A stretch of DNA of 64,000 nucleotides from an uncultured Candidatus Babeliaceae bacterium (GCA_963704655.1 OY969927.1:64001-128000), one strand, 5' to 3'. Positions 56,320 through 60,831 are shown, numbered from the stretch's first letter. Made by a program: numbers and translations. Notes: generated from the sequence alone by a model not told the origin.

Positions 56320-57293
56320 CTACAATATCACACACCCGTCATCAGAAACATTTTGATAAATGGGCGCATGCGGATTTTCTTGGTGTGCTATTTGAATTAA
56401 GACATTTTGAATTCTACGGTATTCCCTTGAATCGTTGTTAACAGAGTATCGCGCTTTATCATAGAATTTACGCGCGTTAATAAAATCTTTTGTTTGATGA
56501 GCTATAACTGCTCCTAATAGAATATCTGGATACTCAGATACTTGGGTTATTTGTTGAGGGAAATAGGTTGATGCTAACGTTGCGTCAGCCTTAAAGATCT
56601 TATAAGGGTTGCTTTTTTCAGGATAATGAAGATAAGTTTTGGAGTTTTCTGGATATGCAAATTGAGCTGCCATAATAGATAACGTAGTAGTACCCCCTTT
56701 AATTTTTTGTAGCCCAATCATCGTAAATGCTAATGCTTTTAATGGTTCCTTTTCTTGTAAATATTGATTTGCTTGATTTATATAAAGCTGCTGCAGATTA
56801 AAGTCTTTTTCCAAGAGCTTGCGAAATATTGGCAGAGAATGGTCATCACTGGTTTGAGGATTTTCATGATATATCTCTTGATAGGTATCAGTTGCATTTT
56901 GGCACTTTAATCTGCTTGCTTGAATTAAATAGTGCTTGCCCAAAACCTTATGCCTGTCAGAACAGTTTCTATCGTCAGGCAGCTCAGGAGCAGGCGCGTT
57001 TACACTTTCACTACACGTGTTGATAATCGTCTTGCAAGCCAAAATGATGCGTTGCCATCATCTTCATAGGCTGTTGCAACGGTTGCCATAGCCCATCTTT
57101 TAAGGTGGTCATGTTTTTTGTTTTCGGCATACGTGAGCATTTCTTTTGCATTACTAGATGCTAAAGCTGCAAGAAAATCGTTTTCAGCGTATGGTGGTGG
57201 GTTTTCGGCAAGAGCAAGTTTTGTTTCTTCAGTTGCATGAACAGTAAAACTTGTTAAAGCACTTAATAAGCCAATAAAAAATATCTTTTTCAT
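56320..57293 (-). pseudogene. frameshifted PPxY/CaaX protein, paralog of 57382..58461
   Basis: One base missing at about 57026 relative to the paralog (CGATTATC vs CGACTTATC); restored protein has NPPPY and ends GCVIL*. Confidence 0.75.
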
Positions 57294-57381
57294 AATACTC
57301 TCCAAAAAGTTAATGTAAAAATAATCTACAGGATACTAGCATAAGATTATACGGTAAAAAATATCTCGATTATACAGTGAT

Positions 57382-58461
57382 CTATAATAGTACACACCGT
57401 TTATTAGGAGCATTTTGATAAATGGGTGCATTCGGATTTTCTTGTTGTCCTATTTGAACCAAGATTTTTTCAATTCTACGACGCTCGCTGGGGTGTTGAT
57501 CGTTAGAATTTTGATAAATGGGTGCATTCGGATTTTCTTGTTGTCCTATTTGAACCAAGATTTTTTCAATTCTACGACGCTCGCTGGAGTGTTGATCGTT
57601 AGAGACAGCAGCTTGCCTATAAAATTTACCTGCAGTATCAAAGTCATTTATTTTATGGGCTATAGCTGCTGCCAGCAGAACTTCAGGATACCAAGCTATT
57701 TTTTTGTTATTAAAGGGGAAATAGGTTGATGCTAATTTTGCATCACACTCAAATATTTTATAAGGCGCGCTTGTTGCATCATAACCATGGCGGTAATAGT
57801 GATAATAACTTTCCAATTGAGCGGGATATGCAAATCGAGCTGCCATAATAGATAACGCAGCAGGATCACCTTTAGTTTTTTGCAGCCCAATCATCGTAAA
57901 TGCTAATGCTTTTAAAGGTTCATTTTCTTGTAAATATTGATTTGCTTGATTTATATAAAGCTGCTGGTGATCAAAATCTTTTTCTATGAGCATGCGAAAT
58001 ATTCCTAGGGAACGGTCACGGCTGGTTGGTGGATTTTCATGATATATCTCTTGATACGCTGCAGTTGCTTCTTTGCACTTCAATCTACTTGCTTGAACTA
58101 AATAGTGCTTGCCTAAAGAATTAAGCTTGTCAGAAGAATTGCTATCCTTAGCCAGCTCAGGTGCGTTTACACTCGCACTACATCTTTTGATAAGTCGTTG
58201 TGCAAGCCAAAATGATGCTTCGCCACGCTTTTCATAGGCCGTTGCAATGACTTTCATAGCCCATCTTTTAAGGTGGTCATGTTTTTTATTTTCGGCATAA
58301 GAAAGCATTCCATCTACATTTTTAGATGCGAAAGCCGCAAGAAAATCATTTTCAGCGTATGGGGGTGGGTTATCAGCAAGGGCGAGTTTTGTTTCATCAG
58401 TTGCATGAACAGTAAACCCTGTTAAAGCACCTAGTAAGCCAATAAAAAATATTTTTTTCAT
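57382..58461 (-). CDS. exported helical-repeat protein with PPxY motif and C-terminal CaaX box
   Basis: Signal peptide, NPPPY, Sel1/TPR-like helices, ends KRCVLL*. Confidence 0.8.
   Translation of the reverse strand: MKKIFFIGLLGALTGFTVHATDETKLALADNPPPYAENDFLAAFASKNVDGMLSYAENKKHDHLKRWAMKVIATAYEKRGEASFWLAQRLIKRCSASVNAPELAKDSNSSDKLNSLGKHYLVQASRLKCKEATAAYQEIYHENPPTSRDRSLGIFRMLIEKDFDHQQLYINQANQYLQENEPLKALAFTMIGLQKTKGDPAALSIMAARFAYPAQLESYYHYYRHGYDATSAPYKIFECDAKLASTYFPFNNKKIAWYPEVLLAAAIAHKINDFDTAGKFYRQAAVSNDQHSSERRRIEKILVQIGQQENPNAPIYQNSNDQHPSERRRIEKILVQIGQQENPNAPIYQNAPNKRCVLL
57412..57603. repeat. 96 bp intragenic tandem duplication (2 copies, 1 mismatch)
   Basis: 57412-57507 vs 57508-57603, encoding SNDQH[S/P]SERRRIEKILVQIGQQENPNAPIYQN twice. 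Confidence 0.95.
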
Positions 58462-58580
58462 ATTTTCTCCAAAAAGTTAATGTAGAAATAATCTCCAGGA
58501 CTTTAGCATAAGATTTTTGAGAATACAAAGATCTCTTTTCAGGTTCTAAGGCGCTAATCTAATAATATTTTATGAAAATT

Positions 58581-58796
58581 TTACAGTGTAATTTCAATTT
58601 TACCATTACAACACCAGCAGAATAAATCGTAGCATATCAAAAAAGTTGAGGCTTGAGGTTGCATGCGGATGGGTATATCTTTTTTTGTTTGTATACCATG
58701 TAGTAATACGAAAGTCTGTTGGGCTGAAATTGTATTGTCTTGCATACTAAATAATGGTGTATAAACCATGAATAAGATGGGTAGTATTTTTTTCAT
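58581..58796 (-). CDS. small exported protein with Cys-rich C-terminus
   Basis: MKKILPILFMVYTPLFSM leader after an AAGGA RBS; ICYDLFCWCC. Confidence 0.5.
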   Translation of the reverse strand: MKKILPILFMVYTPLFSMQDNTISAQQTFVLLHGIQTKKDIPIRMQPQASTFLICYDLFCWCCNGKIEITL

Positions 58797-58855
58797 ATAG
58801 TCCTTTATCATAATTACCAGCAACAACATAAGCATTTACCTACTTGACTATGTCT

Positions 58856-59767
58856 TTATTCAAAGATACTCGCAAGTGAATTCCACAGTAATAGGCCAAG
58901 TGAAGAGTCAGCTTTTTGAGGTTCAACACATTTTTCTATTGCAGCGGTAAGCTGCTGTTGAGTATCTTCAGGCAAACCACGCAAGCGTGCAACATCTGCA
59001 TAGTGGTGCGCGATCATTTTATTTTTTTTAAATATTTTTTGATGCTCTTCCTGCGTTATCATAAATTCAGCCAATGCTTGTGCGCCTAAAGGCGAATCTG
59101 GAAATTTATGATACGCATAGCAAAAAACGGCTAATGCACGCAACGGGTCAGGCTGGAGCCCCGTTTTGGTTCCGCGTAATAAATCTAAACCCGCTTGGTG
59201 AAGTTCTTGCGCTCCGTGCAAATTTTTACTCGTGCATACTAAATCCACTAAAAATTTACTCGAAGGGTTTTCAACGGCTACTTGTGCCAGCGCTTCCTGC
59301 TCTGTGATATTTTTGCCGGTTAATTTTTGTAGTTTTTTTAAAGTATTATTTTGGTGATTATATTTTATTGCAGTGCATAAATATATACTTGCCCTATTTT
59401 GAGATAACGTTGTTTTCTCTATTAAGTCATGCTCGGTTAATTTGTCTGCAAGATCAACGCATGCTTTGGTATCGTTACAATCAGTTGCGATTTGCAAAAG
59501 TGCAAAAGCCATAAGAGGTTCTTGGCTGATGCCACTAATGCCTTGAAAATATGCATGAGCGCGCAGCTGCATGAGTCCCGTATTCTTTTTTGGTAGTGGG
59601 TCAAGGAAAAAATCGTGTGGTATTTTTTGTGCAGGGCTGATACTTGAGCTTGATGGATGTTGCACGTATGGTTCAGAATAATCAGGTGGCGCATAGGTAT
59701 ACTTTGCTTCATCAAAGCAATAGAGTTGTAAAGATATTCCTAATAAACCTAGTATTACTTTTTTCAT
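58856..59767 (-). CDS. exported Sel1-like protein with PPxY motif
   Basis: Signal peptide, APPDY, AYFQGISGISQEPLMAF and LLRGTKTGLQPDPLRAL Sel1-like units. Confidence 0.7.
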   Translation of the reverse strand: MKKVILGLLGISLQLYCFDEAKYTYAPPDYSEPYVQHPSSSSISPAQKIPHDFFLDPLPKKNTGLMQLRAHAYFQGISGISQEPLMAFALLQIATDCNDTKACVDLADKLTEHDLIEKTTLSQNRASIYLCTAIKYNHQNNTLKKLQKLTGKNITEQEALAQVAVENPSSKFLVDLVCTSKNLHGAQELHQAGLDLLRGTKTGLQPDPLRALAVFCYAYHKFPDSPLGAQALAEFMITQEEHQKIFKKNKMIAHHYADVARLRGLPEDTQQQLTAAIEKCVEPQKADSSLGLLLWNSLASIFE

Positions 59768-59865
59768 GTACCCTCCTTAACTCATATCACGAAGTAAAGG
59801 TTACCGTGTGCAGCAAAAAAAAGGCAAGAATACGGTATCAGGTCATTCAGTAGGGTAAAAAATCT

Positions 59866-60831
59866 CTATAGTATCTGGCAGCATACGGGATCGTATTGAT
59901 GCAATTGTTTTTGAATATCTTTATTTACTTGCTGTGCCCATGTATCGCGTGGATCTTTTTCTAAGGCTGTCGAAATAGATTTTTTTGCTGCATCCAGTTC
60001 TTTTAAATCATTTTGAATTGCGGCAAGCCATGTGTAACTATTGGCATTTCCTATTAATGCTGCGCATTTTAATGCAAATTTTTTTGCGATTGTACTATCT
60101 TTTTTGACAATTTTTTGGGGCCAGATATCTGTTCCACCAAAAGCAAATTTCATCAATAATTCAGGTCCATAATACTTTTGTGGATAAGTTTTTTCTAATA
60201 ATGTTGCAATTGCCAAGCCTCTTATAGGCTGCGGATTAACGCTATCTGTTCCTTTAAATAAAGCTCTAGCGAATTCATATAATTGTTTTGATGTATAGGA
60301 ATCTCTATTTTTTACTATTTCCGCAAATACACTCGCCTGGAAATCCCTCGATGGTTCTATCTTGTGTTCACTGGTTCGATTGTAAGTTGTTATATAATCA
60401 AGGGCGTTATTGTTGTTTAAAGACGCCGCATGGGCAATATAGGCAAGTGCTAACGTTGAAGTATCTTTATGTGCAATATTTTCACTGAGAGTTTCTGCAA
60501 TTTTCCATGATGCAGATCCATCTGTTTCAAAGGCAGTTGCAAGGGAAAGTAATCCAAGGCAATAGAAAATATTTTGAGGTATAGTTCCAGTCCGATCACC
60601 ATCGTTATAGATGCCGGCAACACGAATCATATTTTCTACGTTGCCGGCATTAAATGGCTTGAGAAAAAAATCCCGTTCTTGTTGTTCTATGAGCTCTGCA
60701 GGGTTAAGTGTCTGATGATTAGATGAAGGTGCAGTATAGGCCGGCGGTGGGTCGTTAGAGATAAGTTTTTGAGTTTCTGCAGCAGTAACGAATGAAAAAA
60801 AGCATAACAATAATAAAGTAATTTTGTGCAT
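59866..60831 (-). CDS. exported Sel1/TPR-like protein with PPxY motif and C-terminal CaaX box
   Basis: Signal peptide, DPPPAY, TPR-like C-terminal unit (ALEKDP), ends VCCQIL*. Confidence 0.75.
   Translation of the reverse strand: MHKITLLLLCFFSFVTAAETQKLISNDPPPAYTAPSSNHQTLNPAELIEQQERDFFLKPFNAGNVENMIRVAGIYNDGDRTGTIPQNIFYCLGLLSLATAFETDGSASWKIAETLSENIAHKDTSTLALAYIAHAASLNNNNALDYITTYNRTSEHKIEPSRDFQASVFAEIVKNRDSYTSKQLYEFARALFKGTDSVNPQPIRGLAIATLLEKTYPQKYYGPELLMKFAFGGTDIWPQKIVKKDSTIAKKFALKCAALIGNANSYTWLAAIQNDLKELDAAKKSISTALEKDPRDTWAQQVNKDIQKQLHQYDPVCCQIL

Follow-up and report, generated by a model that had tools for sequence, protein, structure and literature searches.

Effectors that are prenylated by host enzymes are already a known kind of bacterial protein, both in Legionella and in Salmonella, whose SifA is geranylgeranylated. 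AnkB and the Pel proteins (PelC and PelE) of Legionella pneumophila, an amoeba-adapted intracellular bacterium, carry a CaaX box and are anchored through host prenyltransferases (PMC2916131, PMC13081727; these and all other papers are cited here from excerpts of their text), and in Salmonella GtgE a C-terminal CaaX promotes membrane association via host prenylation (PMC13423502). In AnkB, the lipid anchor is moreover combined with an F-box, through which host ubiquitin ligases are engaged. A second type of short signal, PPxY, is shown from a flexible region to WW domains by the membrane-attached proteins NDFIP1/2 and TMEM127 and by alpha-arrestins (PMC12720080, PMC2515105). Here we describe an island of four genes, A to D, all of which encode a PPxY motif and three of which encode a CaaX end. 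It occupies positions 56320-60831 of a 64,000-nucleotide stretch of DNA from an uncultured Candidatus Babeliaceae bacterium (GCA_963704655.1 OY969927.1:64001-128000), and this whole stretch is referred to as the window. On balance, we favour the view that these genes belong to an exported, genus-restricted and rapidly diversifying effector family which uses host prenylation as its membrane anchor.

Candidatus Babeliaceae belong to the Dependentiae (TM6), a phylum whose members live as obligate intracellular bacteria in protists. These parasites are widespread and almost uncultured, and their effectors are known only as lists of leader-bearing ankyrin and orphan proteins. The genome containing the island consists of a single contig of 1.298 Mb with 38% GC.

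RESULTS

Four co-oriented genes with leaders, PPxY motifs and CaaX ends

All four genes lie on the minus strand (Table 1). Each bears a PPxY motif just past its leader, as the initial annotation had it. The three Cys-x-x-Leu ends reported there (GCVIL, KRCVLL and VCCQIL) were likewise seen, at the end of tails that were unalignable before the Cys. Genes A and B were 62-79% identical, and genes C and D were 26% identical (E-value 1e-10). A fifth paralog, located elsewhere in the genome and weakly matched by B, has a leader, no PPxY and the end CGCAVL. The leaders of the island genes have, on visual inspection, a basic start, a hydrophobic stretch and small residues at −3 and −1 (for instance, MKKIFFIGLLGALTGFTVHA/T and MHKITLLLLCFFSFVTA/A); apart from inspection, their assessment relied only on a crude rule, which flagged 52% of all open reading frames (ORFs). 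A scan for promoters and terminators was uninformative, with 11 promoter-like sites versus 17.3 expected, and 5 terminator-like sites versus 3.9 expected.

Gene A had been taken as one gene. The leader with PPxY and the CaaL end are both present, but on two pieces in overlapping frames, which also appear as separate gene calls (P0016 and P0002) in protein collections. A contig of sequencing run X5 matched positions 56923-57183 without any difference. The contigs of the sequencing runs were of low depth and extended over parts of the island only.

Two observations on the other genes of the island are recorded here. In the 3' part of gene B, a stretch of about 32 codons (…SERRRIEKILVQIGQQENPNAPIYQN) occurs twice in tandem, immediately ahead of the CaaX tail, where gene A has one copy. 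Gene D is represented in another assembly by two shorter calls, P0014 and P0017, with an extra Lys at the EHK/IEPS site, which reflects either a frame break of that strain or an assembly error.

Table 1. Positions of the island genes, their motifs and the other features mentioned in the text (window coordinates unless a contig or locus is named)
Feature	Position	Strand	Remarks
Gene D	59866-60831	minus	321 residues; leader 1-18, disordered linker, solenoid 44-313, flexible tail ending VCCQIL
PPAY motif of gene D (PPPAY; residues 29-32)	60736-60747	minus	P29, P30 and Y32 invariant in alignment A5
CaaX box CQIL of gene D	59869-59880	minus	Extra Cys immediately preceding
Gene C	58856-59767	minus	303 residues; leader, linker, solenoid 45-279, terminal hydrophobic helix 288-302, ends SLASIFE, without CaaX
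PPDY motif of gene C (APPDY; residues 27-30)	59678-59689	minus	
Small ORF between genes C and B	58581-58835	minus	84 residues; internal MKK-hydrophobic leader-like stretch, Cys-rich hydrophobic end
Gene B	57382-58461	minus	359 residues; leader, PPxY linker, solenoid, duplicated stretch before the tail, ends NKRCVLL
PPPY motif of gene B (NPPPY; residues 32-35)	58357-58368	minus	
CaaX box CVLL of gene B	57385-57396	minus	Lys-Arg just before
Tandem duplication in the 3' part of gene B	57382-57580		
Gene A, whole extent	56320-57305	minus	NPPPY early, GCVIL end; broken into two overlapping frames
Gene A, N-terminal piece	57000-57305	minus	Leader and PPPY (57189-57200); 79% identity to B residues 1-94
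Gene A, C-terminal piece	56320-57042	minus	Different frame; 61-62% identity to B; ends GCVIL, CaaX at 56323-56334
Fifth paralog	G000:C1:1227222-1228145		Outside the island
HAD-like hydrolase paralogs (four)	55362-56201, 60931-61779, 61788-62699, 62725-63546		Leader-like starts; weak Pfam HAD_2 and Hydrolase matches on two; same flanks in G003 and G004
Membrane-type protein	54580-55365		261 residues
5S rRNA genes (two)	13288-13402, 14138-14252		
Second family, this genome	G000:C1:897814-898668, 1219183-1219815, 1219860-1220204, 1220621-1221262		Outside the window
Second family, genome G004	L019 1159-1914, 2306-3022		
Third ORF of metagenome contig L033	2865-3392		Leader, PPSY, low-complexity stretch, very Cys-rich hydrophobic tail

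CaaX and PPxY persist in strongly diverged homologs

Single-protein searches, which covered 41 related genomes, found relatives within the genus only. With the family profile (alignment A2), 4 of the 6 genomes of the genus were matched and none of the 35 genomes that represent 20 further genera of the Babeliaceae family. When 1.84 billion representatives were searched exhaustively with a profile, 60 matches were obtained at E ≤ 1e-3, about 20 of which were true members at E ≤ 1e-10; the remaining matches were generic TPR proteins aligned to profile positions 230-300 only. Word-indexed protein searches added almost no further members, and a locus scan of genome contigs with protein D as query found no relative. 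The only locus returned by a metagenome scan was contig L033, in which a D-type gene (PPAY...CVVS) is followed by a C-type gene (PPSY, hydrophobic end), as in the order of the island.

Conservation was evaluated on 18 distinct genes with complete C-termini, leaving out alternative or partial calls of counted genes (P0001, P0002, P0008, P0010, P0014, P0016 and P0017) and the fragments P0020 and P0036. Identity was about 20-30% among these members and 17-40% to D, and their tree, in which three subfamilies were distinguished, had terminal branches with a median of 1.1 changes per site. At this divergence, a CaaX with the Cys exactly at position −4 was kept in 12 of 18 members (CVIL in three, CVLL and CTIL in two each, and CQIL, CAVL, CVVS, CVIQ and CIVQ in one each), nine of these terminating in Leu, two in Gln and one in Ser, and the a1 and a2 residues being aliphatic or small. 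The residues before the Cys were unalignable across members, whereas the four-residue end itself was kept (alignments A1 and A2). PPxY was present in 11 of 18 members and in all three subfamilies, 5-12 residues past the leader and within an otherwise unalignable linker, so that both of the signals singled out in the initial annotation proved to be conserved in homologs.

The two motifs were nevertheless uncoupled: six members carried both, six CaaX only, five PPxY only and one neither, at least one motif thus being present in 17 of 18. With this distribution, one obligatory design of an anchor plus a ligase recruiter does not hold for the family as a whole. In the B-type subfamily CaaX was present in all members except P0019, and in the D-type subfamily (support 96/96) in all except P0004, while none of the four C-type members (support 99/99) had CaaX and all of them had PPxY plus a short hydrophobic end. 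Further features were found beside the CaaX, namely CC in D and P0005, CGASCGC in the fifth paralog and Lys-Arg in B; such extras are reminiscent of the second membrane signals found in Ras and Rho proteins.

As this small family is restricted to a single genus, and kin share features, one might regard both motifs as chance occurrences or as functionless leftovers of recent common ancestry. We consider this extremely improbable: identity in the folded domain is down to about 20%, and terminal branches exceed one change per site, yet the four-residue end and PPxY persist in regions that are otherwise unalignable. Moreover, strict CaaX ends are expected at a rate of about 0.65 per 1270 ORFs, and the differing sequence right before each CaaX argues against recent gene-conversion copies.

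Both motifs are predicted to lie in flexible ends of an alpha-solenoid

The AlphaFold2 (AF2) model of gene D, made from a 16-row alignment, showed a 14-helix solenoid at residues 44-313, with a predicted local distance difference test (pLDDT) value of 89.1 and a predicted template modelling (pTM) score of 0.83. Residues 16-43 were of low confidence, PPAY (29-32) lying within a part with pLDDT of about 49-54, and residues 314-321, which hold CQIL, were without secondary structure (mean pLDDT 66 for 311-320, and 47 at 321). The model of gene C (pLDDT 86.5) gave the same picture, plus a detached terminal helix at 288-302 after a linker (pLDDT 67-68). According to these models, PPxY and CaaX would both sit in low-confidence, flexible ends of a confidently predicted solenoid.

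Two features of the initial annotation looked different in the models. The terminal helix of gene C, described there as amphipathic, is indeed predicted as a helix, but it is hydrophobic rather than clearly amphipathic (mean hydrophobicity 0.56), with an ordinary moment of 0.33 that is equalled or exceeded by 57 of 244 windows of the protein's own body. The DF[F/L] segment turned out to be no separate motif but the start of the first helix of the solenoid (helix 44-61 in the model of D, pLDDT 89-98). The Sel1/TPR-like helices, on the other hand, were recovered: Foldseek searches against the PDB with gene D returned Sel1-like/TPR structures first (4bwr with E 5e-5, 6ok3, HcpC 1ouv, LpnE 6deh and LceB 8sxq; E 5e-5 to 5e-3), and the neighbours in the ESM Atlas were Sel1/TPR clusters. 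The predicted fold thus resembles a Sel1/TPR-like alpha-solenoid of about 270 residues.

Genome-wide controls single out the CaaX ends

In the set of 1270 ORFs used for all genome counts, five strict CaaX ends were found versus 0.65 expected, and 0-2 were found at 24 shifted positions, an excess over chance; this solenoid family supplies four of the five. The corresponding values were 4 versus 1.6 expected for CxxL ends, and 31 ORFs versus 10-26 at 24 shifted positions for Cys at −4. As for PPxY, 4 of the 15 genomic occurrences fall in the island, all of them 5-12 residues past the leader.

Another possibility is that CaaX is a true host-lipidation signal and PPxY is not a WW ligand, but a proline-rich ligand of some other host module or an export or processing signal by the cleavage site. 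This would agree with the constant distance of PPxY from the predicted cleavage site (always 5-12 residues), with an unrelated neighbouring ORF on contig L033 that has the same leader-then-PPSY layout, and with the six members that have CaaX and no PPxY. However, the exact consensus including the Tyr is kept, and PPxY with Tyr is a class I WW ligand. PPxY within the first 60 residues, furthermore, was found in only 6 of the 1270 ORFs versus about 4 expected, and it is regarded as a trait of the family and not as a general export tag because four of these six ORFs belong to the family; a role as a general export signal of the genome was discarded on the same counts. We therefore consider a non-WW role of PPxY quite unlikely. 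Binding of a WW-domain protein is plausible.

A second, unrelated leader-bearing family of the same genome was noticed, with a common 'FFSDERL' stretch and an invariant Cys near the end (Table 1). The Cys is at −4 in five of its six members (CSIM, CTQQ, CRQS, CPLQ and CRVQ), the sixth ending in CEQGQM, and a1 and a2 are often non-aliphatic. Of the 31 ORFs that have Cys at −4, 8 belong to one or other of the two families, and the second family may be a host-farnesylated one.

Export route and site of action

Two secretin genes were found in the genome, whereas VirB4 and FHIPEP were both searched for and neither was found. PF00432 (protein prenyltransferase) was not found in the genome either, control genomes being equally silent in the same search. 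These results can be set beside what is reported, in the excerpts cited, for relatives. In Babela massiliensis, no secretion system other than type II was detected, and ankyrin proteins with leaders are presumed to be released into the amoeba cytoplasm (PMC4378268); two gspD copies were present in all TM6 genomes compared (PMC4776705); and signal peptides were assigned to 44% of coding sequences in Chromulinavorax (PMC6561590). Acanthamoeba and the protist S. elongata are the cultured hosts of Dependentiae that these papers name (PMC4378268, PMC6561590).

A Sec-type leader would also suit envelope proteins of the bacterium itself, periplasmic or on the surface, comparable to the Sel1-like Hcp proteins of Helicobacter. 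The terminal Cys and PPxY would then have functions within the bacterium, and their resemblance to eukaryotic signals would be coincidental. The nearest solved folds do include the secreted bacterial Sel1-like proteins HcpC and c5321, and the VirB4 and FHIPEP searches revealed no dedicated injection system. Nonetheless, we judge this very unlikely. In 12 members a lone Cys is fixed precisely at −4, with aliphatic or small residues next to it and L, S or Q last, which fits the CaaX rules, and we know of no bacterial role for such a CaaX-like tail. The lineage is obligately intracellular, with leader-bearing effectors as its accepted model, and another family of this genome, unrelated to the first, likewise has its Cys at −4 in all but one member. 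The proteins of the island family probably work inside the host cell, anchored to host membranes.

Neighbourhood of the island and other observations in the window

The island is flanked by paralogous leader-bearing HAD-like hydrolase genes, and a conserved block ending in glmM lies downstream of it (Table 1). The same HAD/glmM arrangement was found in genomes G003 (locus L013) and G004, with two family genes at the island in G003 and two in G004 (one of them split) versus four here. In G002, two family genes are located on contigs C19 and C53, and a HAD-like neighbour is found beside the C53 copy only, so that the island holds at most one gene there. Secreted HAD hydrolases have also been reported for Chromulinavorax in the excerpt cited (PMC6561590).

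The 261-residue membrane-type protein is encoded just upstream of a YbbR-like ORF and glmM, is conserved in G003 and had no Pfam match at E ≤ 1; its position is, we presume, reminiscent of that of cdaA in the cdaA-cdaR-glmM operon. Elsewhere in the window, a single 16S-tRNA(Ile)-tRNA(Ala)-23S operon is followed by two 5S rRNA genes.

The small ORF that separates C from B is possibly a genuine gene. A relationship to the third ORF of contig L033 was considered and rejected, as the likeness did not reach significance (E 0.09). That L033 ORF, which encodes an unrelated protein, is built on the same logic of PPxY plus a membrane handle.

DISCUSSION

A model for anchoring and the points that weigh on it

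In the model that we favour, the proteins would be exported through Sec and the type II secretin pathway and would arrive in the host cytosol. There, as the motif and its conservation suggest, the Cys at −4 would be lipidated by host geranylgeranyltransferase I at Leu ends or by farnesyltransferase at Ser and Gln ends. By the CaaX rule, a Leu end directs a protein to the former enzyme and a Ser, Gln or Met end to the latter. The protein would then reside on a host membrane, where the solenoid would bind a host partner and PPxY, in the members that have it, would dock a WW-domain protein. In members without CaaX, the terminal hydrophobic helix may serve as an alternative membrane handle.

Several observations speak against host prenylation of an effector family. 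Regarding conservation, CaaX is missing from 6 and PPxY from 7 of the 18 members, and the members are kin, hence the counts are not independent events. The genome counts rest on a crude longest-ORF set, not on gene prediction, and in this set PPxY was not enriched (15 found versus 21-23 expected). The ratio of non-synonymous to synonymous substitution rates (dN/dS) of gene A versus B, 0.47-0.48, indicates no more than moderate constraint and leaves undecided whether A is a pseudogene; as A is frame-broken, there may be a dead gene among the three CaaL genes of the window. As for the fold, the template modelling scores of the Foldseek matches were about 0.3, no Pfam Sel1 match was obtained for the family at E ≤ 1, and the Pfam matches obtained were sub-threshold only (TPR_1 with 16 bits versus a cut-off of 27.8 bits, TPR_8 and TPR_17; residues 262-296 of D). 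Finally, a Sec leader reaches the periplasm only, nothing found carries the protein over a host membrane, and Babela appeared to grow inside a vacuole, according to the excerpt cited (PMC4378268).

Is a host ubiquitin ligase recruited?

A special case of the favoured model would be a bacterial mimic of Ndfip proteins or arrestins, i.e. a prenylated, membrane-tethered PY adaptor by which a host Nedd4-type HECT ligase would be recruited, activated and offered a target held by the solenoid. The conserved PPxY in a flexible linker and the membrane handle at the opposite end of the protein are what such an adaptor would have. NDFIP2 and TMEM127 work in this way, membrane tethering helping to release the auto-inhibition of the ligase (PMC12720080), and the PY motifs of alpha-arrestins bind Rsp5 (PMC2515105). 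On the other hand, each protein here has one PY motif, while NDFIP2 requires all three of its own (PMC12720080). In a survey of 44 eukaryotes, as excerpted, ligases of the C2-WW-HECT (Nedd4-like) type were present only in Opisthokonta and Apusozoa, and the 3 Amoebozoa included had none (PMC3673628). That a Nedd4-type ligase is recruited is therefore a weak proposal and the weakest step of the scheme, because the survey found such ligases in these groups alone and because the motifs are uncoupled, only one third of the members (6 of 18) having both. We regard the mimic as unlikely. If the WW partner were nevertheless a Nedd4-like ligase, it would point to an opisthokont or apusozoan host.

A broader proposal, somewhat unlikely in our estimation, is that Dependentiae equipped with only Sec and a type II-like secretin place in the host cytosol proteins with eukaryotic motifs at both ends, the present family being a mimic of membrane-tethered PY adaptors that is geranylgeranylated and docks a WW protein. 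Should it hold, the family and the second one with Cys at −4 would make up a set of host-prenylated effectors in a phylum where none has been described. The favoured model, if true, would mean that bacterial proteins prenylated by the host are not confined to Proteobacteria with injection systems. With two eukaryotic signals as its only conserved short features, the family also provides a concrete handle on whether proteins exported by Sec and type II in this phylum arrive in the host cytosol, which host membranes they would occupy and which host pathways they would tap.

Comparison with known systems

Literature searches combining Dependentiae with prenylation or CaaX, and Babela with CaaX, found no such report, although supplementary tables of the Babela/TM6 genome papers may list families of this kind. 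A search joining PPxY, CaaX and effector gave, among the matches listed and as judged by title and abstract opening, no bacterial protein with both motifs.

With the Legionella effectors introduced above there is no sequence or domain kinship, and the phylum is different. Their delivery is by the Dot/Icm type IV system, unlike the Sec leader and secretins, which are all that was found here. AnkB is farnesylated, whereas 9 of the 12 CaaX ends of our family predict geranylgeranylation, and its ligase-recruiting element is a folded F-box rather than a PPxY peptide. The C-type clade without CaaX also has a parallel in Legionella, where one strain loses CaaX by a frame shift and anchoring by farnesylation is set against that by a di-lysine endoplasmic reticulum-retention signal, as far as the excerpt describes it (PMC5506055). 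Salmonella SifA and GtgE differ in type III delivery, in their unrelated folds and in having no PPxY.

From NDFIP1/2, TMEM127 and the alpha-arrestins, which are host integral membrane proteins or have arrestin folds, the present proteins are set apart as bacterial solenoids with a predicted lipid anchor, a single PY motif and a putative partner. In their fold, they are like HcpC (1ouv), c5321 (4bwr), LpnE (6deh) and LceB (8sxq), all-alpha solenoids of paired helices, several of which are secreted proteins of host-associated bacteria; a pairing of PPxY with CaaX was not noticed in those Sel1-like proteins, without a systematic check. What is new here in relation to all of these systems is the phylum, the Sec leader replacing an injection signal, the mostly geranylgeranyl-type ends, the Sel1-like scaffold and its pairing with a conserved PPxY.

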